Source of the DNA: Caulobacteraceae bacterium
GTDB lineage: Bacteria > Pseudomonadota > Alphaproteobacteria > Caulobacterales > Caulobacteraceae
Direction: 5' to 3'
DNA: 64,000 nt
Assembly (NCBI GenBank): GCA_036267835.1
Contig: DATAVF010000130.1
Span: 554 to 64,553 of the forward strand
The translations under genes and the position numbers were made by a program. Each line of letters starts with the position of its first letter. The first letter of the stretch is position 1. The notes under the pieces were generated by a model. That model had not been told where the DNA came from. It made no database searches and was given only the letters and a program-made list of their open reading frames with translations. Of this stretch, positions 27,937 to 44,078 are shown piece after piece.

Positions 27937-28716
27937 TCAGTACACCGCCAGGGGTGTGTCCTCGCCTAGCTCGCCGAGGATCACCATGCGCGATTGCTGC
28001 ATGTGGTAACGCCAGGTGGTCTCGGCCGAGGGTCCGTCGCGGGCAGCGATGGTGTCCACCAGCTGGCGGTGGATGCCCAGGGTCGACAGGTTGAGGTTCA
28101 TCTGGTGGTCCGGCCGGTTACGCGACACGAACCGCGTCAGGTGACGCAGGTAGAGCTCGTCCAGCATGCTGACGATCAGCGCCAGGGTGGTGTTGCCGGC
28201 CATGCTCACGACCAGCTGGTGGAAGCGCGTGGCCGCCTCGGCGAAGGTGGTCCAGTCGCCGAGATGCTCGGATTCGTAGTCGATGTGGGCGCGCAGTTCA
28301 GCCAGGTGTTCCTCGGTGCGGACGCTGGCCAGCAGGTTGATCAGCGGCGGCTCGATAATCAGGCGCGCGTCGAACATCTCCTTCAGCGTCGCGCCGCGGA
28401 TCTGCAGCAGCACGCCCACCGAGCGGGCGGCGGTGAGGTCGTCGGGCAGGGTGATGCGGGCGCCGCCGTGGGCGCCGCGCTTCACCTCGATCAGCGACTC
28501 GGCTTCGAGGATGCGAAAGGCCTCGCGCAGCGAGGCGCGCGAGACGTGGAACTCCGTCATCAGCTCGGCCTCGGAGGGCAATGCGTCGCCGACGCTCAGG
28601 TCGCCCTGCACCACGCGCCGCCGGATGGTCTCGGCAATCAGTTCGGCGGCTTTCGGAACGCGGATGGCGCGCTCGGATCGGGCGCCGGCAGCGGCTGCCT
28701 GGGAATGCTGTCTCAA
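27937..28716 (-). CDS. GntR family transcriptional regulator (FadR/FCD subfamily)
   Basis: HTH LPSEAELMTEFHVSRASLREAFRILEAESLIEVKRGAHGG followed by an all-helical FCD-like domain. No ATG near the N-terminus, so the proposed start is TTG at 28716 after GGGGAGA. The start is uncertain. Confidence 0.75.
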   Translation of the reverse strand: MRQHSQAAAAGARSERAIRVPKAAELIAETIRRRVVQGDLSVGDALPSEAELMTEFHVSRASLREAFRILEAESLIEVKRGAHGGARITLPDDLTAARSVGVLLQIRGATLKEMFDARLIIEPPLINLLASVRTEEHLAELRAHIDYESEHLGDWTTFAEAATRFHQLVVSMAGNTTLALIVSMLDELYLRHLTRFVSRNRPDHQMNLNLSTLGIHRQLVDTIAARDGPSAETTWRYHMQQSRMVILGELGEDTPLAVY

Positions 28717-28742
28717 CCGTTCTCCCCGGGCCTGCTTCGCCG

Positions 28743-28760
28743 AAATGGTAGTATTAAACT
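28743..28760. promoter_or_regulatory. AT-rich box AAATGGTAGTATTAAACT upstream of the GntR gene
   Basis: Lies between the esterase stop (28776) and the GntR start. Reverse strand reads AGTTTAATACTACC, related to the TTA-N-ACTAT boxes. Confidence 0.25.
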
Positions 28761-28775
28761 GCGCTGCTGTCGCGG

Positions 28776-29807
28776 CTAGCGGCGAGCGAAGTTGGCGAGG
28801 TGGCTGGCGGTGTCGCGGCTGATGTCCGGGCAGGCCATGGCGAAGATTTCGGTGGCGTGCAGCGTGCCCATCACCTGGCGGCAGCGGGCGGGCGCGCCGA
28901 CGGCGAGCAGGCGGCGGTAAAAGTCGATCCCCTCGTCGCGCAGCGGGTCGCACTCGTTGACGCTGATGACGGTCGGCGGGAAGCCGCGCAGGTCGTCGTC
29001 GGAGGCGAAGGCCGGCCAGGCCAGCGGGTCCTGCGCACGGAAGGCCTCGATGCCGTAGGCCATGGCCGCGCGGTTATTGTGCAGGTCGCCCAGGATGCCA
29101 AAGTTGTTCAGGGACGAGGGATAGCGCGCCTGCGGCCACTCGCCGGCGATGTAGGGGCACATCGCATAGAGGCCCTTGATCAGGCCCAGCTCGCCGCCCC
29201 GCTTCAGCTTCAGGCCTGTGGCGAGCGTCAGGTTGCCGCCGCCGCTCTCGCCCGCGACGACGATGCGGGCCGGATCGATGCCCAGCGTCGCGGCGTTGGC
29301 GTGGACCCAGCGCACCCCGCTGACGCAGTCGTTGAGGCCGGCCGGGAAGGGTGCGACCTCGCGGGCCGACGAGGCCACGAGGGCGTTGCGGAAGTCCACC
29401 ATCACCACCGCCAGCCCCTCGGCGGCCACGATCCGGCCCCAGGCGCGGTACTGGCCATCGAAAGCCGAGAGCGAGGTCATGCCGCCGCCGTGCAGGTAGA
29501 CGACGCCGGGCAGCACCGCCTCGCCCTGCGGCCGGATCACGTGGGCTTTGATCCGGTTGCCGTCCGGCTGCGAGACGAACTCCACCGTGCGCATGGCGAG
29601 GCCCGCAGAGGGCGCCGTCGCCTCGGTGTCGTTGGCGCCGAAGAGGGCCTTGAACTGCGCCCAGCCCTCCCGCGCCGCGTCGGTGTCCTCCTCGGCCAGC
29701 TGCTGGTCGCGGCTGGCGGCGTCGCCAGCCGGCGGCAGCTGCGGCAGATGGCCGAGCAGGGCCTTGATGCGCGGATCGACGCGCAGGTCTTCCGCCAGCT
29801 TGACCAT
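28776..29807 (-). CDS. Alpha/beta hydrolase, hormone-sensitive-lipase-type carboxylesterase
   Basis: 343 aa. VVYLHGGGM oxyanion motif and GESGGGN nucleophile elbow. Confidence 0.85.
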   Translation of the reverse strand: MVKLAEDLRVDPRIKALLGHLPQLPPAGDAASRDQQLAEEDTDAAREGWAQFKALFGANDTEATAPSAGLAMRTVEFVSQPDGNRIKAHVIRPQGEAVLPGVVYLHGGGMTSLSAFDGQYRAWGRIVAAEGLAVVMVDFRNALVASSAREVAPFPAGLNDCVSGVRWVHANAATLGIDPARIVVAGESGGGNLTLATGLKLKRGGELGLIKGLYAMCPYIAGEWPQARYPSSLNNFGILGDLHNNRAAMAYGIEAFRAQDPLAWPAFASDDDLRGFPPTVISVNECDPLRDEGIDFYRRLLAVGAPARCRQVMGTLHATEIFAMACPDISRDTASHLANFARR

Positions 29808-29837
29808 CAGAACCGCTCCGCGGGATTTGGCTTTTGT

Positions 29838-32057
29838 TCAGAACGACTTGCGCAGCTCCACGCCGACCACGCGCGGATCGCCGAGGTAGGCGACATAGAC
29901 GCCCGTGGCCAGCGGCGCACCGAAGACGTAGTTCTTGTACTTCGTGTCGGTGAGGTTGTTGGCGAACAGCGAGACTTCCAGGCCGTGCTGGTCGCGCACG
30001 CCGATGCGGGCGTTGGCGATGGCGTAGCCCGGCAGGTAGGTGTTGGGATCGTTGTTGGAGGTCTCGATCAGGCTCTTGTAGCCGACGTCGAAGCGGATGA
30101 ATCCGTTCCACTTGCTGGTGACCGGGCGCTCGTAGTTCCCGGACACGTTGAACGTCCATTTCGGCGCGCCCGAGAGCGGCAGCCCCGACTGGTCGCAGAC
30201 ACCGGCGACGCCCGGCGGGCACTGGCCGTCCGGGAAGGACGTGAAGTGGGCGTCGAGGTAGCTGCCGTTGGCCGAGAGGGTCAGGCCCTCGATGGGGCGC
30301 GCGTTGATTTCGAACTCGACCCCGCGGCTCACGAACGAGGCGGCGTTACGGGTGATCAGGTTGGTGCCGTCCCAGGCCAGCGCCTGGAAGTTGTCGTAGT
30401 TGGTCCAGTAGAGCGCCACGTCGATGCTGAGCTTGTGGTCGAGCAGGTCGGACTTCAGGCCCAGTTCGTAGTCGATGTTGGTCTCGGGCTCGAATTGGAT
30501 GCCGGTAAGGTTGGCCAGTCGGGTCAAGTCGAAGCCGCCGGGCTTGAAGCCGGTGGCGATGCTCGCATAGGCCGTCACGTCCGGCGTCACCTTGTAGCTG
30601 AGGTTGGTCTGCCAGGTCAGATCCCGGTCGTCGCGCCTTGCGGTGTCCGGTCCGAGGTCCGGGAAAATGACGTTGGTCGAGCGCTGCACGAAGAGGGCTG
30701 TCTGCGGCTCGGCCGAGTAGCGCAAGCCGCCCGAGATGGTGAGCTGGTCGGTCAGGTGATAGTCGAGGTGGCCGAACACCGCGTACGACGCGTCGTCGAC
30801 GACCTCGTAGTTGTAGGTGGGGCCGGGCTCGCCGGGAATGATCAGGAAGCTGGCGTCGGAGCCGATCGGCAGGGTGTCGAACTCGGTCGAGTGGCGCCAG
30901 AAGTAGAACAGGCCGACCACGTATTCGAGCTTCTGGCCGGACGGCGAGGTGAAGCGCAGTTCCTCGCTCGCCTGCTTGTGGTTCTGGTGGATCGCGAAAC
31001 CGTCCAGCAGATTGAACGGCAGCTCGTCGACGTCGCTGATCGGGAAGGCGTCCCACTCGCGGTATGACGCCAGCGAGGTGATGGTGCCGATGGGCAGATG
31101 CCAGTTCAGTTCGGCGGTGATGCCGCCGCCGCTGTTGGGATTGGTGTTGACGCCGTCCTCGATGGTCTCGCGGTTGTAAGGGGAGCCGGGCGGCACGACC
31201 GGGGCCACCGGGTAGCCGAGGCTGTTGCCACCGGGCAGGACGCTGGAGATCACCACGGAACAGCACTGGCTGGTCTCGTGCTGGTAATCCGCGGTGATGG
31301 TCGCGTCGAAGTCGTCCTTCTTGAACTCCAGCTTGCCGCGCACGCCGTCCTTGTGGAGGTTGTCCACGTGCTCGTTGCGCACCGGGTCGTAGGTGTAGCC
31401 GTCGTGGTTGTCCGAATAGCCGGCGAGGCTGAAGCCAAGCTCGTCGGGGACGATCGGGCCGGTGACCATGCCGCGCACACGCACGTCGTTGTAGCTGCCG
31501 TAGCTGGCCTCGAACTCGCCGCGATAACCGGTGAGGCTGGGCGGCTGGGTGATGATGTTGATCAGGCCGCCGGCGGTGTTCATCCCGAACAGGGTGCCCT
31601 GCGGGCCGCGCAGCACCTCGATGCGCTGGATGTCGACGAAGTCCTGCGTCGTGCCCATGCCGGTGCGCGACATGAAGACGCCGTCGATGAAGACGCCGAT
31701 CGACGCCTGCTGCCCGATGTCGGCCTGCTGGGTGGAGACGCCGCGTATCTCGATCGTCGAGGTGCGCGAGTCGCCCTCCTGCAGCGAGAGCATGTTCGGC
31801 GTGATGGTCGCCAGGTCGTTGAAGTTGACGAAGCCGTGCTGGGTCAGCGTCGCGCCTGACACCGCCGAGATCGAGATCGGAACATCCTTGATGTTCTCCT
31901 CACGCTTCTGCGCCGTGACGATCAGTTCCTGCACCTGGCCTGGCGCGGACGCCGAGACGGCGGTGTCGGCCATGGCCGGGCTGGCCGCGAGCGCGGTGAG
32001 CGCCAGAGCCGAAGCCGTTGCAACGAGTACGAGCCGTCCCTGCCGTCTTCCAGCCAC
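29838..32057 (-). CDS. TonB-dependent receptor
   Basis: 739 aa. Signal peptide ending ASPAMA. QELIVTAQKREENIKDVP. Plug RIEVLRGPQGTLFG. C-terminal ...VGVELRKSF. Confidence 0.9.
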   Translation of the reverse strand: MAGRRQGRLVLVATASALALTALAASPAMADTAVSASAPGQVQELIVTAQKREENIKDVPISISAVSGATLTQHGFVNFNDLATITPNMLSLQEGDSRTSTIEIRGVSTQQADIGQQASIGVFIDGVFMSRTGMGTTQDFVDIQRIEVLRGPQGTLFGMNTAGGLINIITQPPSLTGYRGEFEASYGSYNDVRVRGMVTGPIVPDELGFSLAGYSDNHDGYTYDPVRNEHVDNLHKDGVRGKLEFKKDDFDATITADYQHETSQCCSVVISSVLPGGNSLGYPVAPVVPPGSPYNRETIEDGVNTNPNSGGGITAELNWHLPIGTITSLASYREWDAFPISDVDELPFNLLDGFAIHQNHKQASEELRFTSPSGQKLEYVVGLFYFWRHSTEFDTLPIGSDASFLIIPGEPGPTYNYEVVDDASYAVFGHLDYHLTDQLTISGGLRYSAEPQTALFVQRSTNVIFPDLGPDTARRDDRDLTWQTNLSYKVTPDVTAYASIATGFKPGGFDLTRLANLTGIQFEPETNIDYELGLKSDLLDHKLSIDVALYWTNYDNFQALAWDGTNLITRNAASFVSRGVEFEINARPIEGLTLSANGSYLDAHFTSFPDGQCPPGVAGVCDQSGLPLSGAPKWTFNVSGNYERPVTSKWNGFIRFDVGYKSLIETSNNDPNTYLPGYAIANARIGVRDQHGLEVSLFANNLTDTKYKNYVFGAPLATGVYVAYLGDPRVVGVELRKSF

Positions 32058-32315: not shown

Positions 32316-33425
32316 TCACCGGCGGTCGGCCGCGAGGGCGTAGGCGGTGTTGAGGGCCGTGGCGAAGAGCTGCGCGCGGGGATAGCGGATGTCGTCGCCG
32401 GGCCCCGGCTGACCCACGTGCGTGGTAGCCGCAGTCGCGACCGCGACGCGCCGCTCGGGATCGATCCAGGTCGACGTCCTGGCGCCAAGGGTCGAGCCCG
32501 GGTGTCCCCACACGTCGCTGCCGGCCCAGGCGCGGCGCTCGATGCCGAGGCCATATTCCGTCCCCAGGCTCATCGCGAAGTGGGGCGTCGCGCTGGGCTT
32601 GGCGATGCGCTCCGTCAGATCGTGCAGCGAGATCCCGAGGGGGCTGTCCGGGCGCAGGAGGCTGGCATAGATCGCAATCGCGTCGCGAGCGTTGCAAAGG
32701 CCATCGCCGGCGCCGAAGCCCCAGCTCACCTCGCCCGAGATGTCGACCGGGGCCGGCGCGCCGGCGATCGACATGTAGCAGCGCATGCGCTCGCCGGGCG
32801 GAATGAGGCCACCAAAGCCGCTGGCCTTCAGCCCAAGCGGCTGCACGATCCGAGCATCGACGGTCGCGCCATAGGGTTTGCCGCCGACCGCCTCGATGAT
32901 CATGGCCGCGACCACCCAGCCGGTGTTCGAATAGTCGAAGCAGGCGCCGGGCTCGAACAGCTGCCCCTGTGGCAGCGCCAGAGCGAGCAGGTCTCGGGGC
33001 GCAAAGGGGATGCGCACGTCGGGCCGGACGCCGAACATCGCGGTTGTGTATTCGCCCAGCCCCGAGGTGTTCATCAGCAGGTGGCGCACGGTGATCCGGG
33101 GATCGATGGGCAGATCGACATAGCTCACCGCCGGCGCGTCGAGATCGAGAAGGCCTTCGCGCGCCATGAGCAGCAAGGTCATCGCGGCGACCGTCTTGCT
33201 TTGGCTGCCGATCTGGAAGATGTCGCCCGGGCCGATCTCGCGCGTCCGCTCGAGGTTCGAATGGCCGGCCGTGACGGTTACCCGGCCAACCCCCTCAACA
33301 TCGATCGCGACGAGCGCGCCGAGGTTGCCCAGCCGGTCAACGAGATCATCCACCACGCGTTCAAAACGCACGAGCGCGTCGGCCGCCGCGGCCGAGGCGG
33401 GCTGGAAACTGCTGTGTACGGTCAT
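32316..33425 (-). CDS. Beta-lactamase-fold serine hydrolase (paralog A)
   Basis: ATG at 33425 within ORF 32316..34556 (MTVHSSFQPASAAAADALVRFERVV...). SxxK nucleophile motif SQSK. 369 aa. Confidence 0.85.
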   Translation of the reverse strand: MTVHSSFQPASAAAADALVRFERVVDDLVDRLGNLGALVAIDVEGVGRVTVTAGHSNLERTREIGPGDIFQIGSQSKTVAAMTLLLMAREGLLDLDAPAVSYVDLPIDPRITVRHLLMNTSGLGEYTTAMFGVRPDVRIPFAPRDLLALALPQGQLFEPGACFDYSNTGWVVAAMIIEAVGGKPYGATVDARIVQPLGLKASGFGGLIPPGERMRCYMSIAGAPAPVDISGEVSWGFGAGDGLCNARDAIAIYASLLRPDSPLGISLHDLTERIAKPSATPHFAMSLGTEYGLGIERRAWAGSDVWGHPGSTLGARTSTWIDPERRVAVATAATTHVGQPGPGDDIRYPRAQLFATALNTAYALAADRR

Positions 33426-33439
33426 GGAATTCCTGCCGC

Positions 33440-35794
33440 CTAGGCGAGGTCGCGCAGCATCATGGCCCGGTTCGCCGCCGCGCCCTGAGCTGTCCATTCG
33501 AGCTTGAAATCGGCCGGCGGCTCTACGCCCAGCAGGTGCCGCACGAAATAACTCCAGATCCGCTGGATCGCGTAGGGGCTCTCCGACAGCACGGCGTGCG
33601 TCACGCCGGGAAGGATCAGCTGGTCGAAGTCCTTGCCGGCCGCAATCAGCGCCGCCGACAGCGCCAGGGTGTGGCCGGGATGAACGTTGTCGTCCATGTC
33701 GCCATGGATCAGCAGCAGCTTGCCCATGAGCTTGTGGGCGACAGTGACATTCGCCTGCGCGTCCCGTTCGGGGTCTCCTGGCCGAGCCCCGTAGCGGTCG
33801 AGCCAGGTGCCGACGTAGTTGCGGTTGTCGTGATTGCCGCAGAGCGCGACGCCGACCTTGAACAGCTCCGGATAGTCGAACATCGCCCGCGCCGTGGCGT
33901 GGCCGCCGCCCGACATCCCGAACATGCCGACGCGGTTGAGGTCGAGGAACGCATGGCGCTCGCAGAGCTGCGCGATGACCGCGGCGTGGTCGCTGAGCTG
34001 CGGCTCCAGCAGGCGGCCCTTGCCGGCATGGTGGAAGGCGCGGTCGCGGCCAGGCATGCCCCGCGTCTCGAGCAGGATGCCCACCAAGCCCAGTTCGGCG
34101 ACCGACTGCATCTGCGCCCCGTGGACACTGGGAAACCGCCGCGTCAGCCAATTGGTCTGCGGGCCGGGATAGATGAAGTCGACCAGCGGATAGGACTTCG
34201 TCGCATCGAAGTCCGACGGGAAAAACATTGCGCCAACCAGCCGGGTGACCCCGTCGGCCGCCACGGCCTCGAACAGCTCGGGCTTCGGCGCCGACCAGAG
34301 GGCGTCGATGTTCAACCTGGCGATCTCGAGCGCCTCGCCCGTGACGGTGTCGATCACCAGGGTGCGGGTCGCGAGGTCCACGGCGCCCAGGCTGGCCGCG
34401 ACGTAGCGGCCGTCGGCCGAGGCGCCGCTCGGCGCATAGGACGGGCGCGCCGGCTTGAGCTGGTCGACGCCCGACACGGGGTTCGGCTTGACCGCCAGAT
34501 CGCCATCGGCGGCGAAGATCGTCTCGAAGCCGCCTCCGTCGAAGCCGACCCGGCACAGCCGCCGCTGGATCGGATCGCGATCCCCGTCGAAGCCGCTGGC
34601 AAGGAAGAGGATGCGCCGCGCGGCCTCATCCACGTGCACGATCTCGCGCACCACCCACGGCCCTTCAGTGATGCGGTGCTTCAGCGCGCCGCTGGCCAGA
34701 TCGTGCAGATAGAGATGCCCGCGCCCGTCGGCCTGCGAGTACCAGATCAGCTCGCCGGATCCGTGCAGCGGCTGCACCATCGGCTGCGCCAGCAGGTTCG
34801 CGGTCAGGTCGATCCACCCGCTCTCGGCCGTCTCGGCCAACACGGTCCGCAGGGCGCCGGAGCCGAGGTCCATGGCCACCAGGGCGACGGCCGAGGAGAA
34901 GCGATCCCACTCGAAGAAGTAGAGGCATTCGTCGGTGAACCAGCACTGGCGGAACATGAATGGAGAATAGGCTTGCGACGCCACCAGCCGCTCGGCGGCG
35001 CGGACGACGCGGCCGCTGGGGAGGTGGATGGCGAGGAACTCGGTCTTGGGCGGATCGGCGTCCGGGCCGCGGACCTTGAAGATGCGCGCGGCGGGACGCC
35101 GGTTTCCGGCGGGGACATGTTCGACCAAGGCGCCCTCGGGAAGGCTGCGCTCGTCGATCCGGTGGGTCGCGAACCATTGCGAATCCCGCGACCACAGGCC
35201 GGCCGGCATCCGCGACTGGCGGGCGGCCAGCGGCGCGGTGCCCGATTCCGGCATGGCGCCGTAGGCATGGTGCGCCTCGCCGTCCGAGGTCAGGCGCCGA
35301 GCCTCGCCCGATGCCCGATCCCGGACCCAGAGGTCGTGATCTTGCAGGAAGCAGGACAGCCGGCCGTCCGGCGCGTGCAGAGCCGGCACCGGTTCAAAGG
35401 TCTCTGTCTTGACCAGCGCCGGCCCGGCCAGGGCGATGTGAAAAGCGTCAGGGCCCAGGATGACCACCAGGGTGTCGGCGTCGGGCATGTCGTATTGCGC
35501 GGCGGCCAGATGCGCCGGCAGGACCTCAGTCTCGCCAGACCGCGTGATCAGCGCGGCCAACGCCTCGACGGAGAGGACTGGCGAGACGCGGCCGCTGCGG
35601 GCATCGACGATCGACGGCGCCAGGCGCTGCTGGCCGCCGGCGATGTCGGAGACGCAGAAGAAGTAGCGATGGTCGTCGATCCAGTAGCCGTCGCCCACGG
35701 CGCCGGAGAGCCTGGGTCCCAGAAGCTGCGGCAGGAAGGTCGCCGCGCGCCGATAGGTGTCGGCCGCCAGGGTCTCGAACTTCAGGGAACTCAT
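33440..35794 (-). CDS. S9 family serine peptidase (prolyl oligopeptidase / dipeptidyl-peptidase type)
   Basis: ATG at 35794 (MSSLKFETLAADTYRR), ATGA overlap with the MFS stop. C-terminal catalytic domain with GMSGGGH and LLLIHGDMDDNVHPGHT. Confidence 0.85.
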   Translation of the reverse strand: MSSLKFETLAADTYRRAATFLPQLLGPRLSGAVGDGYWIDDHRYFFCVSDIAGGQQRLAPSIVDARSGRVSPVLSVEALAALITRSGETEVLPAHLAAAQYDMPDADTLVVILGPDAFHIALAGPALVKTETFEPVPALHAPDGRLSCFLQDHDLWVRDRASGEARRLTSDGEAHHAYGAMPESGTAPLAARQSRMPAGLWSRDSQWFATHRIDERSLPEGALVEHVPAGNRRPAARIFKVRGPDADPPKTEFLAIHLPSGRVVRAAERLVASQAYSPFMFRQCWFTDECLYFFEWDRFSSAVALVAMDLGSGALRTVLAETAESGWIDLTANLLAQPMVQPLHGSGELIWYSQADGRGHLYLHDLASGALKHRITEGPWVVREIVHVDEAARRILFLASGFDGDRDPIQRRLCRVGFDGGGFETIFAADGDLAVKPNPVSGVDQLKPARPSYAPSGASADGRYVAASLGAVDLATRTLVIDTVTGEALEIARLNIDALWSAPKPELFEAVAADGVTRLVGAMFFPSDFDATKSYPLVDFIYPGPQTNWLTRRFPSVHGAQMQSVAELGLVGILLETRGMPGRDRAFHHAGKGRLLEPQLSDHAAVIAQLCERHAFLDLNRVGMFGMSGGGHATARAMFDYPELFKVGVALCGNHDNRNYVGTWLDRYGARPGDPERDAQANVTVAHKLMGKLLLIHGDMDDNVHPGHTLALSAALIAAGKDFDQLILPGVTHAVLSESPYAIQRIWSYFVRHLLGVEPPADFKLEWTAQGAAANRAMMLRDLA

Positions 35795-37137
35795 GCCGCA
35801 TGCCCTCGTGTGATGGCGACGCTGGGGGGGCCGGGAGCGCGCGCCCGGCTCGCCGCCCAGAAGCACACGGCCGCGACGGCCGCCAGCGGCGCCGCGACCA
35901 CCGCCATGGCGGCGCCGATCATCTGGTCACCCCCGAGCAGGGACCCGACATAGCCCACCAGCGGCGAGCCGATCATCCCGGCGATCGCGATCAGCACGAC
36001 GTAGGCGCCCATGGAGAGGCCCCGCAGTTCGTTGGGGAGCTGGAAGTTGATCGCGGTGACCGGAATGAAGATCGCGACGTCGTTCAGGAACAGGAAGAAG
36101 ACGTAGAGGACGGCAAATCCGGCGACGTTGGGCATCAGCCCCATGGCCGTGCAGGGCACGATCAGGAGGGTCGTGATCGCTGCCGGCAGCAGCATGGCGC
36201 GGTTGCCGCCGCGGGCGCGCGCCGCGTTGATCAGCTTCCCGGCGGCGGCGACCGCGGCCAGGCCGCAGACGATGGTGATGACGCTGGCCGGGAGGGCGAA
36301 GTCGCCAGGCTGCAGCTTGTAGAGCCGCATGAGCGCGGGCGCCAAGAAGGTGTAGAGACCGCTCGAGGCCCCGCTGAGGCACATGATGCCGAGAAACAGC
36401 GGTACGAGAGTTGCACGAAATTCCCAAAGCTCGCGGAACGCGCCCTTGTCGGCGCTTCGGATTTCCATCCGCGCCGGTTCCCGCGTCGCCAGCAGCAGCG
36501 GCGGGATGAGGATCCCGACCACGGCGAAGATGAGCGAAACGACGCGCCACGGCGCCAGGCCGCCAAGAGCGCGGGGATCGTGCGCGACCCAGGTGACGAG
36601 GGCCGAATAGCCCAGGCCCCCGACCAGCAACGCGGCGACCCGTCCGAGCTGCTGGCCGACGCCATAGCTGAGGGAGCCGAAGGCGCGCCGGTCCGGGGCG
36701 AAGAAGTCCGACAGCAAGGAGATCGCCGCAGGATAGGTCATCGCGGCGCTCACTCCCGAGACGACCTTGGATAGCACGAGCATCCCGAGGCCGTGAGACA
36801 GCCCTGTCAACACCATGCTGGCGCAGTTCAGCGTGACCGCGGCCATCAGCAGGCGAACACGCGGCAAGCGGTCGGCGAGCAGGCCGGCCGGCGCAGCGAG
36901 CACGCCGTAGGCGGCGAAGTAGGCGGTGCCGTAGGCCAGCCCCACCTGGACGTCGGCCAGCTTGAGCTCATGCTTGATCGGCTCGATCAGCAGGCCGACG
37001 ACCTGGCTGTCCATCGCGCTGAACAGCGCAACGAGGGCCAGCACCACCTGGGCGTAGCGCGCTCGCCCCACGCTCGGATAGAACGCGGCCTCCAGCGCGA
37101 CGCTCATGTCGGGTCTCGCGGCCCGCGGTGTCGTCAT
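35791..37137 (-). CDS. MFS transporter
   Basis: ATG at 37137 (MTTPRAARPDMSVALEAAFY...), ATGA overlap with the TonB-receptor stop. Multiple hydrophobic segments. An alternative start exists at 37107. Confidence 0.85.
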   Translation of the reverse strand: MTTPRAARPDMSVALEAAFYPSVGRARYAQVVLALVALFSAMDSQVVGLLIEPIKHELKLADVQVGLAYGTAYFAAYGVLAAPAGLLADRLPRVRLLMAAVTLNCASMVLTGLSHGLGMLVLSKVVSGVSAAMTYPAAISLLSDFFAPDRRAFGSLSYGVGQQLGRVAALLVGGLGYSALVTWVAHDPRALGGLAPWRVVSLIFAVVGILIPPLLLATREPARMEIRSADKGAFRELWEFRATLVPLFLGIMCLSGASSGLYTFLAPALMRLYKLQPGDFALPASVITIVCGLAAVAAAGKLINAARARGGNRAMLLPAAITTLLIVPCTAMGLMPNVAGFAVLYVFFLFLNDVAIFIPVTAINFQLPNELRGLSMGAYVVLIAIAGMIGSPLVGYVGSLLGGDQMIGAAMAVVAAPLAAVAAVCFWAASRARAPGPPSVAITRGHAA

Positions 37138-39337
37138 TGACGGAAGGTGACGCGCACACCGACGGTCAGGGGGCGCAACGAAGTGTAGCTGTTGGGCAGG
37201 CTCAGGTACTTCACGATCGCCGCGTCGTTGTTGGTCAGGTTCTCGCCATAGAGCGCGACCGTGCCCCAACGGGTGTCGAGCCCGACGGAGGCATCGAGCG
37301 TCGAATAGGCCTCGTCGATCGCGAACAGGCTGTTGGCGCCGGCGTCACTGAAGGCGTTCGGGGATGAGCTGGTGTATTGGCCGTCGAGGCGGATGAACGC
37401 CTGGTTGCCGCCGCGCACGTCCCAGCGACGTTCGACGCCCGCCGCAACTTTGTAGCGGGCGAGACCCGGCAACACGTCACCCTTGGCGGTCGGAATGACG
37501 ATGTTGGTCGGCACGCTGTCGATCTGGCCGTCCTGCGCCGTGGCGTTGGCGTAGAGGGTGAGGCCCTGCATCGGCTGCGCCGCGAACTCGGCTTCCAGCC
37601 CGTGCACGTCCGCTGTGCCGGCGTTGGCGATGAAGCTAAGCCGGTCCGAGATGCGCGTGCCGTTGATCTGGATGTTGTGCCAGGAAATGTAGAAGGCGGT
37701 CAGGTCCAGGGTCACTCGATTGTCGAGCCAGCTGGTCTTGGCGCCTAGTTCGTAGTTGATCGTGTAGTCGGGCTGATAGCCTCGCGGGATGACATAGTCG
37801 CTCGGATTGATGGCGCTGGGCCCGAAGTTGGGATTTACCTGCCCGATCCGGTATCCCTTGCTGACGTTGACGTAAAACAGCATGGACTTGCTCGGCTCGT
37901 AGGAGATGCCATAGCGCCAGGTCGAGTTGGTGTCGTTGGTCTTGTTGTCCAGGCTCGCGGGGGCGCTGTAGCTCAACGTGGCGAAATTTAGCGTGATCCG
38001 ATTCAGCTCGCTGTACTCGGCGGTCGTGCGGAAGAAGCGGAAACCGCCGCGCAGCTTCAGGCCGTCCAGGATTTCGTAGCTTCCGTCGGCATAGCCTGCG
38101 AGCTCCGTCGACTTGGTGGTGATGTCGGTCTTGAAGTAGGTGTCGCTGCCGGGGATGCCGCCGAAGAGGGCGTCGAGCCCGGGCGCGCTGAGTTCATAGT
38201 TCGGCGTGGCCGAACTGCGGTTGATGTAGAAGATGCCCGCCACCCATTGCAGGCGCGACGGGGTGTTCGAGACCAGCCGGCCTTCCTGCACGTAGAACCG
38301 CGACGTCTCGGGGGCGTTCAGCACGAAGTCCGGCGTGCCGGCGCCCAGCAGGGGACCGATATCCTCGCGGAGCGCCGACTTGGTCGTCTGGTAGGTCGAC
38401 GACACCGTCAGGGTCGCGAACTTCGCGAAGCTGTAGTCGATGTCCAGGTTGTAGTTGGTGATGTCGGCCGGCCGTCCTTCGGAGATCACCGAGGCGGCCC
38501 TGAACTTGCCCAGCGTTGGGTTGTAGAAGTCGCCGTCCTTCGGGTCGCTGCTCTGGTGGAAGATTTCGGCCCTGACCTTCAGCGCGTCGGTCGGGGTCCA
38601 TTGCAGCGCAGCGCGGCCGCCCCAGTCGATCGAATCGTTGCGCGTGCCGAGGGTGATGTTCTTCACCCACCCATCCTCGTCGCGATAGTAGCCCACGATG
38701 CGCAGCGCGAGCTTGTCGTCGACCAGGGGCAGATTGACCATGGCGTCGTAGCGCTGGCGCAATCCGCCGCCGTCCGTGCCCGCCAGGTCGACCTGCTCGG
38801 TCGCGTCGAACTTGGTGGCGTCGGGCTGGTTGGTGATGATGCGCACGGTGCCGCCGAGCGATCCGGAGCCGAAGAGAGTGCCCTGCGGTCCGCGCAGCAC
38901 CTCGACCCGAGCCACGTCGAAGAGGTGCAGGTCCGGGTCACCTGGGCCCCGTAGGTATCGGTCACGGGCGTGTCGTTGATATAAACCGACACCGGATCCT
39001 GGGTGTTGCCGCCGGTCACGGTGGTCCCGATCCCGCGAATGTCGAAGATGGCGCGGTTCTTCGTGGTCTCGTTCATCGTCAGGCCAGCCACCGAGCGCGC
39101 GAACCCGTCGAAGCTGTCGATCCCCCGCGCTTCGATCTCTTTCTGCGGAATGGCGGTAATCGCCGCTGGCGCCTGTTGCAGCGATTCCTCGCGGCGGTTG
39201 GCGGTGACGATGATGTCGCTCACCGTGGACACGGACGTGTCCGGCGCGGCCGGCTCGGCGAGGACCGGTCCAGCTTCGGCGAAGGTGAGCCCGACGGCGC
39301 CCACGAGCAGCAGGGTCTTCAACGGAAGTGCGCGCAT
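37134..39337 (-). pseudogene. TonB-dependent receptor, reading frame broken near 38941-38951
   Basis: Signal peptide plus plug (MRALPLKTLLLVGAVGLTFAEA...DIIVTANRREESLQ...VSVYINDTPVTDTYGAQV) is in the frame of ORF 38663..39376. The rest (PDLHLFDVARVEVLRGPQGTLFGSGSLGG... to the stop at 37134) is in the frame of ORF 37134..39407. The junction lies in the run TACGGGGCCCAGGTGACCCGGAC. One extra G would restore ...TYGGPGDPDLHLFDV... Confidence 0.65.
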
Positions 39338-39370
39338 GAATTTCCCCCAAGTCGCGCTGGCGGCCGCCAG

Positions 39371-39407
39371 TTGCACAAATGTATAACTCTATTTTACAAT
39401 CGTGCAA
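39371..39407. promoter_or_regulatory. 37-bp imperfect palindrome, candidate TetR operator (Op1) between the TonB-receptor operon and tetR
   Basis: TTGCACAAATGTATAAC-TCT-ATTTTACAATCGTGCAA. The half-site GTTATACAwwyGTGCAA is shared with Op2. Confidence 0.6.
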
Positions 39408-39538
39408 CCACTTGAAGTGGGCGGACCGGTCGCCGCGCTGGCGCCTGGTGGCGAGAGGGGCCGTCGGCCTTGCTTACCGCCCGCAACACGTTGAAATTCG
39501 CGTTGGTTTTCTCCTGACCTCGTCGTAGGGCCGCAAGC

Positions 39539-40168
39539 ATGGCTTTCCATTCGCCGCCGCCGCCCGAGCAGCTCAGCAGCCGCGAGCGCCTGCTGGACGC
39601 GGCCATCCGGTTGTTCGGCCAGAATGGCTTCGAAGGCACCTCGGTGCGGGCGATCGGTGACGAGGCCGGGGTCTCCTGGGCGCTGATCCGGTTCTACTTC
39701 GGATCCAAGGAAGGGGTGCGGGAAGCGGCCGACGAGCGGGCGATCCGCGGTTATCTCGATGCGGTGCACAAGGGCCACTCCGCCAGTTCCTACGAACAGC
39801 TCGCCTCGATGCTGGAGGTCGACGCCAAGGGCCTTTCCGAGACGGCGGGCTACCTGCGCCGCGCCATCCTGGAAGAACGCCCGATCGCGCTCGATTTCCT
39901 GCGCCAACTGCTCGAAACGACCGAAGTGGAGAACGCCGCCCTCCGCGCCGAATACCCCGACGAGCCGGTCCTTTGGGACCCTGTCAGGCAGATCGTTCAG
40001 CGCATGGGTTATCTGCTGCTGGCGCCGCAAATCCTGACGCTATCGGGCCGAGACGTCTTCTCGACGGAGGAATTGAAGCGCCGCAATGAGATAGCCTTCC
40101 GTTCTGGGCGTCTGCTTCGCGAGGGACTGCGCGCCGAGCGACGAGACCCCTCCAAGAAGAAGAACTGA
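39539..40168 (+). CDS. TetR family transcriptional regulator
   Basis: 209 aa. RERLLDAAIRLFGQNGFEGTSVRAIGDEAGVSWALIRFYFGSKEGV is a TetR HTH. Confidence 0.9.
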   Translation: MAFHSPPPPEQLSSRERLLDAAIRLFGQNGFEGTSVRAIGDEAGVSWALIRFYFGSKEGVREAADERAIRGYLDAVHKGHSASSYEQLASMLEVDAKGLSETAGYLRRAILEERPIALDFLRQLLETTEVENAALRAEYPDEPVLWDPVRQIVQRMGYLLLAPQILTLSGRDVFSTEELKRRNEIAFRSGRLLREGLRAERRDPSKKKN

Positions 40169-40218
40169 GTCCTGAAACTGGCCCTCTTGGCGCCGGGGGT
40201 TCCTTCGTCGCGACCGGT

Positions 40219-40256
40219 TTGCAGGTTCGTGAAATCGCAGTTATACAAACGTGCAA
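40219..40256. promoter_or_regulatory. 38-bp imperfect palindrome, candidate TetR operator (Op2) upstream of serine-hydrolase paralog B
   Basis: TTGCAGGTTCGTGAAATCGCAGTTATACAAACGTGCAA. The right arm TACAAACGTGCAA matches the Op1 right arm TACAATCGTGCAA at 12 of 13 positions. Confidence 0.6.
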
Positions 40257-40301
40257 TTCGGCGTTCGCCCGACCGTTTCGGGCTGGGAAGGCGACACGAG
40301 C

Positions 40302-41402
40302 ATGCCCCAATTCCTGGGTTTCGCGCCTGCCTCCCGCCGCGCCGAGGCCGCGCTCGCCCGCTTCGAACGCGTGCTGCAGGACCTCGTCGAGCCGCTGGGC
40401 AACCTGGGCGCCCTCGTCGCGATCGATGTCCCCGAGGTCGGCCGGGTCACCTTCACGGCCGGCCATTCCAACCTCGACAAAAGCCGCGCCGCGCAGCCGG
40501 GCGATGTGTTCCGCATCGCCAGCCAGACCAAGACCGTCACCGCCATGGTGCTGCTCCTGATGGCGCGCGACGGCCAGGTCGGGCTGGACGAGCCCGTCGT
40601 CACCTATCTCGATCTGCCGATCGACCGCCGGATCACGGTCCGGCATCTGCTGATGAACCGGTCCGGCCTCGGCGAATACACGCGCGTCCTCGGGCCGCAC
40701 CTCTACAGCCGCGTCCCCTTCGCGCCACGCGATATCGTCGCCCTGGCGTTGCCGCAGGGCCAGCTCTTCGAGCCCGGCGCGCACTTCGACTATTGCAACA
40801 CCGGTTTTACGATCGCGGGCATGCTCATCGAGGCCGTTTCGGCCGGGTCCTTCGGCGAGGCCTGCGCGGCGCGGATCACCCGGCCGCTCGGGCTTGGGCA
40901 CACCGCTTTTGGCGGGCGCATACCGGCGGAAGAGCCGATGCGCGGCTACGTGACCTTGCCGCCCGAGGCCGAGCCTGTCGACATGACGGCCAGCGTCAGC
41001 CGGGCGTTCGGCTCCGGTGATGGCCTCGCCAACGCCGACGACCTGCTCGTCCTCTATGGGAGCCTGCTGCGTGAGGAGAGCCCGCTCCGCATCTCCTTGC
41101 ACGATCTGACCGCCGAGACGGGCAAGCCCTCGGCCAATCCCCATTTCGCCATGAGCCTCGGCACGGAATACGGGCTGGGGCTGGAGCGGCGCGCCTGGGC
41201 GGGGCGCGAAGTCTGGGGCCACCCGGGCTCGAGCGGCCACACGCGCTCCTCGACCTGGATCGACCCCGGGCTCGGCATCGGCGTCACCACCTGCGTCACC
41301 ATGCACATCACCCCCAGCTGGAGCGCGGACGACATCCGCTATCCCCGCGCGCAACTCTTCGGCCAGGCGCTCTCCACGGCCTACGCCCTTGCCGAGATCT
41401 GA
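40302..41402 (+). CDS. Beta-lactamase-fold serine hydrolase (paralog B)
   Basis: ATG at 40302 (MPQFLGFAPASRRAEAALARFERVL...). SxxK motif SQTK. In a hand count, 81 of 111 aligned N-terminal residues are identical to paralog A. Confidence 0.85.
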   Translation: MPQFLGFAPASRRAEAALARFERVLQDLVEPLGNLGALVAIDVPEVGRVTFTAGHSNLDKSRAAQPGDVFRIASQTKTVTAMVLLLMARDGQVGLDEPVVTYLDLPIDRRITVRHLLMNRSGLGEYTRVLGPHLYSRVPFAPRDIVALALPQGQLFEPGAHFDYCNTGFTIAGMLIEAVSAGSFGEACAARITRPLGLGHTAFGGRIPAEEPMRGYVTLPPEAEPVDMTASVSRAFGSGDGLANADDLLVLYGSLLREESPLRISLHDLTAETGKPSANPHFAMSLGTEYGLGLERRAWAGREVWGHPGSSGHTRSSTWIDPGLGIGVTTCVTMHITPSWSADDIRYPRAQLFGQALSTAYALAEI

Positions 41403-42411
41403 TCCCTTCAGCCTGGGCGCGGGTCGTTCCGTTACCCTGGACCTCAGGGCGATGTCCTGGCCGCTGCGCGAACCGTTCGCCATCTCGCGCGGGACCAAGA
41501 CCGCCTTCGAGAGCCTGCTGGTGACGCTGACCGACGCCGAGGGTCATCGCGGCCGCGGCGAAGGCTGCGCCGTCGGCTATCTCGGCGAAACCACGACGGG
41601 GATGGCCGCGCAGCTGGAGGCGGCGCGCGGCCGCATCGAGGAGGGCGTGACCCGCGAGGGGCTGCTGGACCTGCTGCCAGCCGGCGGCGCACGTGCGGCG
41701 CTCGACGCCGCCCTCTGGGACCTGGAGGCCAAGCAGACCGGCCAGTCCGCGTTCGCCCGGGCTGGCGTGCCCGCGCCCCGGGCCATGGACACCGCGTACA
41801 CGATCGGCATCCGCGCGACCGGGGACTACGAGGCCGCCGCGCGCGTCAAGGCGGACTTCAAGGTGTTGAAACTCAAGGTCGACGCCGGTGACCCGCTTGC
41901 CGCGATCGCCGCGGCGCGGCGCGGCGCGGCGAACGCCGGCTTCATCGTCGATCCCAACCAGAGTTGGACGATCGATCAGCTCCGCGCCTTCGCGCCGGCC
42001 CTGGTCGATCTCGGCGTCGTCCTGCTGGAGCAACCCATCCCGGCCGGCGCCGAACAGGGCCTGGACGGCTATCGCTGTCCGGTGCGGCTGTGTGCGGACG
42101 AGCTGGTCCACGTCACCGCCGACCTCGGCAAGGCGCATGGACGCTTCGACGTCATCAACATCAAACTCGACAAGACCGGCGGGCTGACCGCGGCCCTTCG
42201 GCTCGCCGAAGCCGCGCGCGCCCTCGGCTTCGACCTGATGGTGGGGTGCATGGGCGGCTCGTCGCTCGCCATGGCCCCGGCGACGGTGCTGGCCCAGCAG
42301 TGCGCCTTCATCGACCTCGATGCACCCCTGCTGCTGGCCGAGGATCTGCCTGAAGGGCTGACCCACGCCGGCGGCGCGTTCGAGCCGCCTCGGCGCGAAC
42401 TTTGGGGCTGA
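41389..42411 (+). CDS. Enolase-superfamily dipeptide epimerase (L-Ala-D/L-Glu epimerase-like)
   Basis: 340 aa. WPLREPFAISRG N-terminal capping motif. KLKV (KxK), DPNQSW, LEQP, CADE and IKLDKTGG catalytic/metal-ligand pattern of the MLE/AE-epimerase subgroup. The exact start is uncertain (14-nt overlap with the preceding gene). Confidence 0.8.
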   Translation: MPRSDPFSLGAGRSVTLDLRAMSWPLREPFAISRGTKTAFESLLVTLTDAEGHRGRGEGCAVGYLGETTTGMAAQLEAARGRIEEGVTREGLLDLLPAGGARAALDAALWDLEAKQTGQSAFARAGVPAPRAMDTAYTIGIRATGDYEAAARVKADFKVLKLKVDAGDPLAAIAAARRGAANAGFIVDPNQSWTIDQLRAFAPALVDLGVVLLEQPIPAGAEQGLDGYRCPVRLCADELVHVTADLGKAHGRFDVINIKLDKTGGLTAALRLAEAARALGFDLMVGCMGGSSLAMAPATVLAQQCAFIDLDAPLLLAEDLPEGLTHAGGAFEPPRRELWG

Positions 42412-42459
42412 GGCCCTGGTACGCAGCGCCTGTCTGAACGCGCAGGACTTATGCGGCGC

Positions 42460-43506
42460 TCACGTCACAAGCTCCGCCGCCTTCCGGCCGATCCGCTCGC
42501 GGGCCACGCGATCGGCGATCTCTCCGGGCGGGCGGCGCTCCTCGGCGGCCCGCGCGAGAAGCTCGGCCAGCCGGGGGCCGATGGCCCGCACCCGAGGCTC
42601 GACCGCGCCCATCGGTTCGCGGAAATACTCAGCGACCACGCTGATGATTCCGCCGGCGTTGACGACGTAGTCGGGCGCGTAGGTGATGCCCCGCGCCACC
42701 AGCGCCGCGCCGTCCGCGGCGTGTTCGAGCTGGTTGTTGGCGCCGCCGCACACCACCGGCGCGCCGAGCTCGGGAATGGTGTCGGCGTTGAGACCGGCGC
42801 CCAGGGCGTTTGGGGAGAAGACATCCGCATCCGCGGCGTGAAGGCGATCCGTCGGCTCGATCTCGGCCCCGAACCGGGCCCGCGCCGCGACCGTGCGGTC
42901 GGCGTCGACATCGGCGACCACCAGCCTCGCGCCGGCGTCATGCAGGCGCTGGCAGAGCTTCAGCCCTACCGAGCCCAGGCCTTGGACAGCGACGCGGGCG
43001 CCTTTCACGGGTCGCCCCAAGGCGGCCTCCAGCGCGACGAATATGCCGAGCGCCGTCCAGGGCGACGGATCGCCGCCGGCGCAGCCTGGCCGCCCTGGCA
43101 GCCCGGCCACGAAGCGGGTCCTGCGCGCCACGGCCACCATGTCGGCGACGCTGGCGCCGACATCCTCCGCGGTGATGTACCGGCCGCCCAGCCGCTCGAC
43201 CGCCGCGCCGAACGCCTCGAAAGCCGCCGCGCGCGACGTTTGCGGCCCCAGCTTGTAGAGCACGGCCTTGCCACCGCCGACCGGCAGGCCGGCCAGCGCG
43301 TTCTTGTAGCTCATCCCCTGGGACAGCCTCAGCGCGTCGCGCAACGCCGCCTCCGCGCTGGGGTAGTTTGCGACCCGGCAACCGCCCGTCGCCGGACCGC
43401 GCGCCGTCGAATGGATCGCAATGATTCCGGCCAGGCCGGTCGCCGGATCGTCGATGAACTCGACCGCCTCATGGCCGTCGAAGGAAGGATGATTGGCCGG
43501 ATTCAC
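42460..43506 (-). CDS. Glu/Leu/Phe/Val dehydrogenase family (leucine dehydrogenase-like)
   Basis: 348 aa. ARGPATGGCR...MSYKNALAGLPVGGGKAV catalytic-lysine region. Rossmann motif GLGSVG. Confidence 0.85.
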   Translation of the reverse strand: MNPANHPSFDGHEAVEFIDDPATGLAGIIAIHSTARGPATGGCRVANYPSAEAALRDALRLSQGMSYKNALAGLPVGGGKAVLYKLGPQTSRAAAFEAFGAAVERLGGRYITAEDVGASVADMVAVARRTRFVAGLPGRPGCAGGDPSPWTALGIFVALEAALGRPVKGARVAVQGLGSVGLKLCQRLHDAGARLVVADVDADRTVAARARFGAEIEPTDRLHAADADVFSPNALGAGLNADTIPELGAPVVCGGANNQLEHAADGAALVARGITYAPDYVVNAGGIISVVAEYFREPMGAVEPRVRAIGPRLAELLARAAEERRPPGEIADRVARERIGRKAAELVT

Positions 43507-43616
43507 AAGCGCCTCCTTGGAAGGCTTGGTTTTATAATCTCAGCAGCGAGATGTATTTTCAGACTTCATCCGATTGCGGTATTTTACGTGAATTCTATTC
43601 GTGATTTGCGTGTCGC

Positions 43617-44078
43617 ATGAATGATCTTGACGACGCCGACCTCCGCCTGCTTCGGGCGATCCAAAGCGACAGCCGCCAGTCGACGGCGGACCTCGCCGAG
43701 ACCGTCGGCCTCTCACAGGCGGCATGCTGGCGGCGGCTGCAGCGGTTGCGGCAGGCTGGCTACATCCTGCGCGAGACCGCGGTGCTGAACCGCGAGAAGC
43801 TGGGGTTCGGCGCACAGGTGTTCGCCATGGTGAAACTCAGCACCGTCGGGCGGGCAAACCTCGCCGGTTTCGCCGCCGCCATCCGCGCCCTGCCCGAGGT
43901 CGTCGAATGCCACGTGCTGATGGGCTCGGCCGACTTCCTGCTGAAGATCGTCACCGAGGACATCCACGCCTACGAGCGCTTCTTTTTCGAGCGCCTGTCG
44001 GCCCTGGAGGGAATCCAGGACGTCACCTCGTCCGTGGCGCTGTCGGAGATCAAGCCGCCGAGCGGCTTGCCGATCTAG
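43617..44078 (+). CDS. Lrp/AsnC family transcriptional regulator
   Basis: 153 aa. DDADLRLLRAIQSDSRQSTADLAETVGLSQAACWRRLQRLRQAGYI. Divergent from the dehydrogenase, like BkdR-type activators. Confidence 0.9.
   Translation: MNDLDDADLRLLRAIQSDSRQSTADLAETVGLSQAACWRRLQRLRQAGYILRETAVLNREKLGFGAQVFAMVKLSTVGRANLAGFAAAIRALPEVVECHVLMGSADFLLKIVTEDIHAYERFFFERLSALEGIQDVTSSVALSEIKPPSGLPI

Follow-up and report, generated by a model that had tools for sequence, protein, structure and literature searches.

A conserved TetR-linked gene module with a predicted role in the import and cytoplasmic breakdown of unusual oligopeptides in a Caulobacteraceae genome

The 64,000-nucleotide stretch of DNA analyzed here (hereafter the window) belongs to contig DATAVF010000130.1 of a Caulobacteraceae bacterium (assembly GCA_036267835.1) and carries, between positions 32316 and 44078, two transcription units on either side of a gene for a TetR-family regulator and its predicted operators. 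With a probability of about 0.5, this locus would encode the TetR-repressed import and cytoplasmic breakdown of small unusual oligopeptides that are refractory to ordinary peptidases, most likely peptides with D-residues that include a D-Glu unit. D-Residues are proposed because the nearest solved relatives of two S12 hydrolases encoded here are D-stereospecific, because the accompanying epimerase belongs to a D-Glu clade, and because MlrC-like and DAO-family partners recur beside orthologous genes. The substrates and reactions proposed for the locus are all inferred from homology, gene order and conservation.

RESULTS

Organization of the Locus

The GC content of the window is ∼69%, and third-position GC bias picked out one gene for each stretch. 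The uptake operon lies on the reverse strand and opens with the gene for a TonB-dependent receptor (TBDR2, 37134-39337; Pfam Plug and barrel domains), followed by those for a 448-residue MFS permease (35791-37137; PF07690), a 784-residue S9B peptidase resembling DPP4 and prolyl tripeptidyl peptidase (33440-35794; DPPIV_N and Peptidase_S9) and, as the final gene, a penicillin-binding-fold serine hydrolase of 369 residues (S12a, 32316-33425; PF00144). Stop/start overlaps of the sequence ATGA couple the receptor gene to the MFS gene and the MFS gene to the S9 gene, and the gap between the S9 and S12a genes is 14 nucleotides. On the forward strand, tetR (39539-40168; PF00440) is followed by the gene for a second penicillin-binding-fold hydrolase of 366 residues (S12b, 40302-41402; PF00144) and by that for an enolase-superfamily epimerase/racemase of the YcjG/DgcA clade (start at 41389 or 41452, end at 42411; NCBIfam NF042940 and NF011708).

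Beyond the epimerase lies the gene for a leucine-dehydrogenase-type amino-acid dehydrogenase (42460-43506, reverse strand; ELFV_dehydrog domains), which converges on the epimerase gene and diverges from the gene for an Lrp/AsnC regulator (43617-44078, forward strand; Pfam and NCBIfam). The solved structures nearest to the dehydrogenase are leucine dehydrogenases (E 1e-76 to 1e-80). No intrinsic terminators were found above the shuffled background. A first-pass annotation of this DNA had listed these genes; each one that it named is present at these coordinates as judged by third-position GC bias and Pfam/NCBIfam matches, and its list left out tetR with the operators on both sides.

The S12 and S9 Hydrolases Resemble Peptidases and Have No Signal Peptides

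S12a and S12b are paralogs that share 62-63% identity. The Protein Data Bank entries nearest to S12b are those of alkaline D-peptidase (4y7p), a Streptomyces S12 D-amidohydrolase (3wwx) and the R61 DD-peptidase, and those nearest to S12a are the R61 DD-peptidase, alkaline D-peptidase and 3wwx; D-amino-acid amidase is also among the nearest solved relatives of both. S12a and S12b are only remotely similar to these D-peptidases (phmmer E 1e-25 to 1e-31, 92-112 bits). The ASQTK, YCN and HPG sequences of S12b align with the SxxK, YxN and HxG motifs of 4y7p, 3wwx and 1sde, in register with Ser62/Lys65, Tyr159/Asn161 and His298/Gly300 of R61, and SxxK/YxN/HxG is invariant in 27 members of the S12 subfamily, S12a included. 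The presence of HxG instead of KTG argues against a β-lactamase. D-Stereospecific cleavage of peptide or amide bonds by S12a and S12b is plausible from their relatives and motifs. In a quick tree of the subfamily, in which most inner forks were weak, the two proteins did not group together, each having more in common with foreign sequences (67-69% identity) than with its paralog; an origin of the pair by duplication was not resolved by this tree.

The S9 protein combines a DPPIV_N propeller with a Peptidase_S9 α/β-hydrolase domain. The nearest Protein Data Bank entries, 5yp1 and 2z3w (DPP4 and prolyl tripeptidyl peptidase), are distant kin, and the Ser/Asp/His triad is intact, with GMSGGG (GxSxGG), DDN and the His aligned with 5yp1. 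In a low-confidence alignment, the propeller stretch facing the Glu-Glu pair with which DPP4 holds the free N-terminus of its substrate reads AARQSR, with an invariant Arg (R192) and no Glu-Glu pair. Neither S9 nor S12a nor S12b has a hydrophobic N-terminal segment or signal peptide, so all three should be cytoplasmic, and the receptor and MFS permease would therefore probably bring the substrate in intact.

The Epimerase Belongs to a D-Glu Clade

The epimerase gene has a called ATG start at 41452 and an alternative TTG start at 41389 that overlaps the S12b stop codon. The TTG is probably the true start, given that it alone restores an N-terminal strand seen in homologs. The protein matched the DgcA model NF042940 with 382.5 bits and the YcjG model NF011708 with 250.4 bits, missing the curated cut-offs of 400 and 343, respectively. 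Six of the seven homologs scanned beside it were also under the DgcA cut-off (365-395 bits), including four checked as DgcN-linked. The nearest Protein Data Bank entries are 4gfi and 1jpd (Escherichia coli YcjG, E 1e-64). Comparison with both revealed that the epimerase retains the counterpart of YcjG Arg24 together with KxK, the D/E/D metal ligands, the second Lys and DxD, and all of these are invariant across the clade alignment. In YcjG, Arg24 binds the Glu side chain and DxD binds the amino group of the dipeptide.

The first-pass annotation regarded this protein as an L-Ala-D/L-Glu-type dipeptide epimerase. The placement in the YcjG/DgcA clade and the retained Glu-binding Arg uphold that view in part, but the DgcA model fits better than the YcjG model (382 versus 250 bits). 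Identities as an N-succinyl-amino-acid racemase/OSBS (o-succinylbenzoate synthase) or muconate cycloisomerase were rejected at 43-57 bits against cut-offs of 130-335. The first-pass annotation had named such identities as contrary to its view, a condition that an N-acyl-D-Glu racemase would touch. The DgcA chemistry used here follows the NCBIfam name together with the EC entries quoted in PMC11747546 and a citation in PMC13759103.

The epimerase is 60-72% identical to epimerases encoded directly after DgcN (DUF1611). DgcN adjoins the epimerase gene in five of nine full-length close orthologs from the same family and in all five database homologs that were looked up, and these DgcN-linked enzymes share the Glu-binding Arg, KxK and DxD with the window epimerase and have similar sub-cut-off DgcA scores. 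Also encoded around these homologs are TonB receptors, M55 and M15 D-peptidases, PTR2 permeases, Bla+DUF3471, DUF3830 and Amidohydro_2 proteins. DgcN-DgcA pairs in Caulobacter, Sphingomonas and Sphingosinicellaceae were observed within larger conserved clusters, alongside a TonB receptor, Amidohydro_2, Bla+DUF3471, DUF3830 and LysR, often with M55, M15, PTR2 permeases and M19 as well, and these clusters look like dedicated loci for the use of D-peptides and D-Glu.

No DgcN was found in the genome of the window, which is estimated to be 100% complete (no PF07755 match and no tblastn hit), and the canonical DgcN-DgcA route was rejected for this genome on that basis. M55, M15, DUF3830 and Amidohydro_2 partners of the epimerase were likewise not found in the genome. 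The upstream slot held elsewhere by DgcN is taken by the S12b gene. Taken together, it is a robust inference that the epimerase inverts N-substituted D-Glu, in which the substituent may be either acetyl or an amino acid. Its orthology to the DgcN-linked enzymes raises the possibility that it racemizes N-acyl-D-Glu and is not a dipeptide epimerase.

Two sequence differences set the window epimerase and that of a metagenome contig (L009, described below) apart. Both have Leu or Val, after the DxD strand, where eight of nine other aligned homologs have Trp (DWP to DLP or DVP), and both read YLGET or YLGDT in place of YAGET; neither has a DgcN gene nearby. These changes may reflect a shift in specificity. 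Separately, in one genus of the same family (loci L101-L104), a DgcA-clade epimerase gene stands apart from DgcN, which is found elsewhere in those genomes; at L102 (G024:C6:137200-141153), the single locus inspected, it lies between a glutathionylspermidine-synthase-like gene and one for a class-III aminotransferase.

Predicted TetR Operators Precede Both Transcription Units

Two predicted operator pairs flank tetR. Op1 (39370-39408), between the TBDR2 start and tetR, consists of TTGCACAAATGTATAA and TTTTACAATCGTGCAA, two palindrome-like boxes of 14-16 bp that are 21-22 bp apart, and overlaps a promoter-like site for tetR. Op2 (40219-40256), which lies past the tetR stop codon and ahead of the S12b gene, consists of the two boxes TTGCAGGTTCGTGAAA and TTATACAAACGTGCAA. 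Each pair forms a long palindrome, each arm of which is itself a palindrome-like box of 14-16 bp with the consensus T(A/G)CAC(A/G)AA(T/C)GTG(T/C)A. A crude search of orthologous loci for the long 37-nucleotide palindrome found nothing; conservation became apparent when the arms were read as separate 14-16 bp boxes. TetR orthologs of 55-61% identity are present in the same module at three other loci (L018, L020 and L021), and the palindrome TACAC(A/G)AA(T/C)GTGTA occurs beside the orthologous tetR genes in Paracoccus (CTACACAAATGTGTAG) and in a Caulobacteraceae metagenome-assembled genome (MAG; two such boxes), in each case in the TetR-proximal intergenic region.

The N-terminal helix-turn-helix domain (PF00440) and the inverted-repeat sites on both sides of the gene are as expected for a TetR repressor. 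TetR would accordingly bind Op1 and Op2, and the paired, conserved predicted operators would place the uptake operon and the S12b-epimerase pair in one TetR regulon. Genome-wide, the operator boxes occur only four times with at most one mismatch, two of the four flanking tetR, against an estimated ∼3 expected by chance. The remaining sites, on contigs C178 and C47, do not exceed this chance level and are no more than leads. The C178 box (12370-12383, TGCACAAATGTGTG) lies in a divergent region between an amidase/MFS_2 pair and an operon for a TonB receptor, a tannase-type esterase and an MFS protein; TetR may act there too, or the match may be fortuitous.

The Module Recurs in Distant Genomes

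The S12 subfamily search returned 82 database proteins at E ≤ 1e-30 among 8000 candidates scored, and a scan of 185,579 species, each represented by one genome, placed a close S12 relative in ∼9 species. No member of the subfamily turned up in 150 genomes of the same family, and this is thus not a housekeeping gene of the lineage. Where present, the S12 gene almost always lies beside the same S9 and MFS genes, a gene for an outer-membrane channel and tetR. This core recurs in Sphingomonadales, Paracoccus, Azospirillaceae, Roseateles and the Caulobacteraceae MAG. That the genes listed in the first-pass annotation stand together is no coincidence, as the MFS-S9-S12 core is shared by 10 or more unrelated loci.

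The module is commonest in Sphingopyxis. In Sphingopyxis lindanitolerans, the order is TetR, then TBDR-MFS-S9-S12-esterase-MlrC-DAO, with an esterase of the PF00756 type; two further Sphingopyxis species, Sphingomonas cavernae, Roseateles and the Caulobacteraceae MAG also have the module. An Azospirillaceae MAG carries Lrp, then S12-S9-MFS, with TBDR and, further on, MlrC. In Paracoccus denitrificans DSM 413, the order is AsnC, then LeuDH (leucine dehydrogenase)-YitT-DAO-S9-TetR, then MFS-S12-MlrC-M17-OprB, the OprB porin replacing the TonB receptor. Metagenome contig L009/L096 reads LysR-PALP-epimerase-PALP-TBDR-DAO-MFS-S9-S12-MlrC-S58-AsnC-bkdE1. Its epimerase passes the DgcA cut-off, and no DgcN was found within the ∼10 kb fetched on either side; it represents a second, independent pairing of a DgcN-less DgcA-clade epimerase with the module. 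The module is usually accompanied by genes for an M81 peptidase resembling MlrC and for a DAO-family oxidoreductase, and occasionally by those for an S58 DmpA-like peptidase, M17, LeuDH/AsnC and (twice) an epimerase. Orthologous loci also encode M17 and M1 L-aminopeptidases, and integrase, insertion-sequence or resolvase genes lie beside the module in three genomes.

An Lrp/AsnC gene lies beside the module in three other loci, adjoining LeuDH or bkd E1 in two of the three, and the Lrp/AsnC protein of the window is 80% identical to the AsnC protein that flanks the module on L009. This recurrence supports the earlier inclusion of the Lrp and leucine dehydrogenase pair in the locus.

Two pairs of MlrC-like M81 and DAO-family genes were observed on other contigs of the window's genome (C135:7975-10520 and C142:586-3829), the former near another Lrp/AsnC gene. 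A second large cluster (C307:17000-36999) holds genes for an MFS protein, an S58 DmpA-like peptidase, aminotransferases, MFS_2, an ornithine cyclodeaminase-like protein, a paralog of the epimerase (42-44% identity), a TonB receptor, an M1 aminopeptidase, an amidase and a 481-residue β-lactamase-fold protein. The genome contains at least two further loci that combine a TonB receptor with peptidases; such loci are thus common in this organism, and the earlier remark that TonB-dependent uptake of peptides is uncommon does not hold for this genome.

Receptor, Permease and Adjacent Genes

As assembled, the TBDR2 gene is frameshifted. The signal peptide and plug positions 2-74 of the Pfam profile lie in one frame, and plug positions 80-107 and the barrel lie in another; a tblastn comparison with a Sphingopyxis ortholog of 65% identity passes from one frame to the other at residues 135/136, which places the change at ∼38939-38945. 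In this assembly of 389 contigs, the frameshift may be either a sequencing error or the mark of a true pseudogene. The MFS permease has ∼12 hydrophobic segments by hydropathy. Its best NCBIfam match is of the anion:cation-symporter type, with weak matches to EmrB and DHA2 models, and, unlike the permeases of related D-peptide clusters, it is not of the PTR2 type. Orthologs of 44-56% identity hold the same position in other loci.

A second, intact TonB-dependent receptor gene (TBDR1, 29838-32057, reverse strand; Pfam) starts 258 bp downstream of S12a and is followed by an Abhydrolase_3 esterase gene (28776-29807, reverse strand; Pfam). Together with the gene for a GntR/FCD regulator, these occupy 27937-32057, directly 3' of S12a and on the same strand. 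Both receptors match a siderophore-receptor subfamily model of NCBIfam below its cut-off. No operator-like box was found at TBDR1, and nothing was found that ties this receptor to the peptide locus.

DISCUSSION

The gene content, operon coupling, catalytic motifs and absence of signal peptides described above, and the conservation of both module and operators, are properties of the sequences themselves. The module is real, conserved across orders and so far uncharacterized; literature searches for this combination of genes found no description of it. In the proposed pathway, the TonB-dependent receptor would take a peptide across the outer membrane, and the MFS permease would carry it on across the inner membrane. 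Given that the hydrolases have no signal peptide, cutting would take place in the cytoplasm, where the S9B protein would act as an exopeptidase-like enzyme and the two S12 hydrolases, of the R61/alkaline D-peptidase type, would cleave bonds beside D-residues. The epimerase, presumably co-transcribed with S12b, would then invert an acyl- or aminoacyl-D-Glu fragment to the L-form, after which ordinary peptidases could complete the breakdown, and the Lrp-controlled leucine dehydrogenase would deaminate the branched-chain amino acids set free. TetR would act on the paired palindromes before both transcription units and would presumably be released by the peptide or a product.

Several observations weigh against this pathway. 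The lead receptor gene is frameshifted in the assembly, and tetR with an MFS gene is also a classic arrangement of efflux systems. The S12 fold is functionally diverse and also yields esterases and β-lactamases, and the S9 protein resembles L-specific X-Pro peptidases. The DgcA family needs DgcN for its substrate, and no DgcN was found in the genome. Finally, the DAO-family genes of two orthologous loci fit no D-amino-acid dehydrogenase model well, and the window locus itself is without MlrC and DAO genes, copies of which lie elsewhere in the genome.

The first-pass annotation proposed uptake and catabolism of D-residue peptides of the peptidoglycan type. Import and catabolism of peptides are supported, and a link to D-amino acids is plausible from the S12 relatives, the epimerase clade and the partners of the orthologs, but peptidoglycan is not singled out among the possible sources. 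If stem peptides were the substrate, S12 would trim C-terminal D-Ala, S9 would free L-Ala-γ-D-Glu from a tripeptide and the epimerase would act as YcjG does. The R61 DD-peptidase is indeed among the S12 relatives, the epimerase is closely related to E. coli YcjG and retains the Arg24-aligned Arg and DxD, and the invariant S9 Arg at the DPP4 Glu-Glu position, in an alignment of low confidence, could bind a free carboxylate. Moreover, Caulobacter crescentus is without LdcA and Mpl (PMC13046382), so that another fate is required for such peptides. However, no amidase, glycosidase, M14 (MpaA) or S66 (LdcA) domain is present in the locus by Pfam, the genome as a whole not having been searched for AmpG, AmpD, NagZ, LdcA or MpaA; the S12 type, found in 0 of 150 family genomes and ∼9 species overall, is not what would be expected of a housekeeping recycling route; the YcjG score is well under its cut-off; and the permease differs in type from the PTR2 permeases of related D-peptide clusters. 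Stem peptides are thus an unlikely substrate, albeit the best placed of the specific alternatives.

Slightly less likely again is the general scavenging of ordinary L-oligopeptides, for example proline-rich ones, with S9 as an X-Pro dipeptidyl peptidase, the S12 proteins as generic amidases or esterases, and the epimerase and dehydrogenase as unrelated neighbors. The identity of the closest solved relatives of S9, the M17 and M1 L-aminopeptidases of orthologous loci and the functional diversity of the S12 fold are all consistent with such a role. It accords poorly with the D-peptidase type of the S12 motif set and nearest relatives, with the recurrent pairing of S12 and MlrC-like genes, and with the epimerase, which is probably translationally coupled to S12b downstream of a predicted TetR operator and is linked to the module again on L009.

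Degradation of cyanobacterial or other non-ribosomal peptides, in the manner of the later steps of the mlr microcystin pathway, is improbable as the specific function. An S12 hydrolase, an M81 MlrC-like protein and an MFS carrier do mirror MlrB, MlrC and MlrD; Sphingopyxis knock-outs point to compensating MlrB-like and MlrC-like enzymes (PMC12474180); the module is commonest in that genus, and microcystins hold D-Glu, D-Ala and Leu; and mobile-element genes adjoin the module in three genomes. Against this, the MlrC-like proteins score 308 bits where the cut-off for true MlrC is 999, MlrB is a periplasmic protein of ∼59 kDa whereas the S12 proteins are cytoplasmic and of ∼40 kDa, and none of the loci showed an MlrA-like gene, a genome-wide search for MlrA not having been made. 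A resistance or detoxification unit, in which a TetR-controlled MFS efflux pump and β-lactamase-like hydrolases would act against an antibiotic or process a peptidic siderophore, is very improbable: the TetR-MFS pairing, the weak EmrB and DHA2 matches, the below-cut-off siderophore-receptor matches and the PF00756 esterase of the Sphingopyxis locus are outweighed by translational coupling of the MFS gene to an uptake receptor, ∼12 rather than 14 hydrophobic segments, cytoplasmic hydrolases with HxG rather than the β-lactamase KTG, the recurrence of the catabolic partners DAO, M17 and LeuDH, and the absence of iron-related genes.

More broadly, and tentatively, the channel/MFS/S9/S12 module, with or without M81, DAO and epimerase genes, could be an undescribed, horizontally mobile cytoplasmic pathway that feeds Alpha- and Betaproteobacteria on D-amino-acid peptides from cell walls, cyanobacteria or other non-ribosomal sources, with DgcA-clade enzymes that would work in the absence of DgcN to epimerize acyl- or aminoacyl-D-Glu released from peptides. 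Such peptides, as parts of bacterial walls and non-ribosomal products, constitute a large and slowly turned-over pool of organic nitrogen for which few catabolic routes are known. The module is present in cultured hosts, namely P. denitrificans DSM 413 and Sphingopyxis species, and supplies candidate D-specific peptidases together with a possible DgcN-independent role for DgcA-type epimerases; TetR and its predicted operator pair might serve as a biosensor for the inducing compound. Should the substrates prove to be ordinary L-peptides, the locus would be one more peptide-scavenging operon.

Comparison with Known Systems

The S12 proteins find their best solved-structure matches, with aligned motifs, among D-stereospecific peptidases of the family (Bacillus cereus alkaline D-peptidase, Streptomyces R61, Ochrobactrum D-aminopeptidase and D-amino-acid amidase). 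They differ from the secreted alkaline D-peptidase and R61 enzymes in being cytoplasmic, and they form a rare subfamily of their own. With YcjG/YkfB of murein-peptide recycling, the epimerase shares its enolase-superfamily clade, the conserved catalytic and Glu-binding residues and the logic of converting a D-Glu dipeptide to a form that ordinary peptidases cleave. It departs from them in its score (250 bits versus an equivalog cut-off of 343), in the lack of an MpaA-type partner at the locus and in having DgcN-linked nearest orthologs. A DgcN-DgcA pathway of D-glutamate catabolism has reportedly been described by Yu et al. (2023, ISME J 17:537). DgcA is the best family match of the window epimerase (NF042940), but the score is just under the cut-off (382 versus 400), no DgcN was found in the genome and the epimerase gene follows one for an S12 hydrolase.

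Of the systems described so far, the later steps of the mlr microcystin pathway of Sphingomonadaceae come nearest in logic, although the proteins encoded here are not strict members of those families. In that pathway, MlrB, a β-lactamase-fold hydrolase that cuts D-Ala-Leu, acts with MlrC (M81) and an MFS carrier to degrade linearized microcystin (PMC12474180). The window locus differs in having no MlrC, PTR2 or MlrA-like gene (for MlrA, within the loci inspected), in its S12 proteins, which are shorter than the periplasmic MlrB and cytoplasmic, and in an MFS permease that is not of the PTR2 type, MlrD being an MFS/PTR2 carrier. The MlrC-like proteins of orthologous loci fall far below the MlrC cut-off (308 versus 999 bits), and the module adds a TonB receptor, an S9 peptidase, TetR and, in the window, the epimerase. 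Common to both are a penicillin-binding-fold serine hydrolase with an MFS carrier, an M81 MlrC-like peptidase (in orthologous loci and elsewhere in this genome) and a host range centered on Sphingomonadales, and the mlr substrate carries D-Ala and D-Glu.

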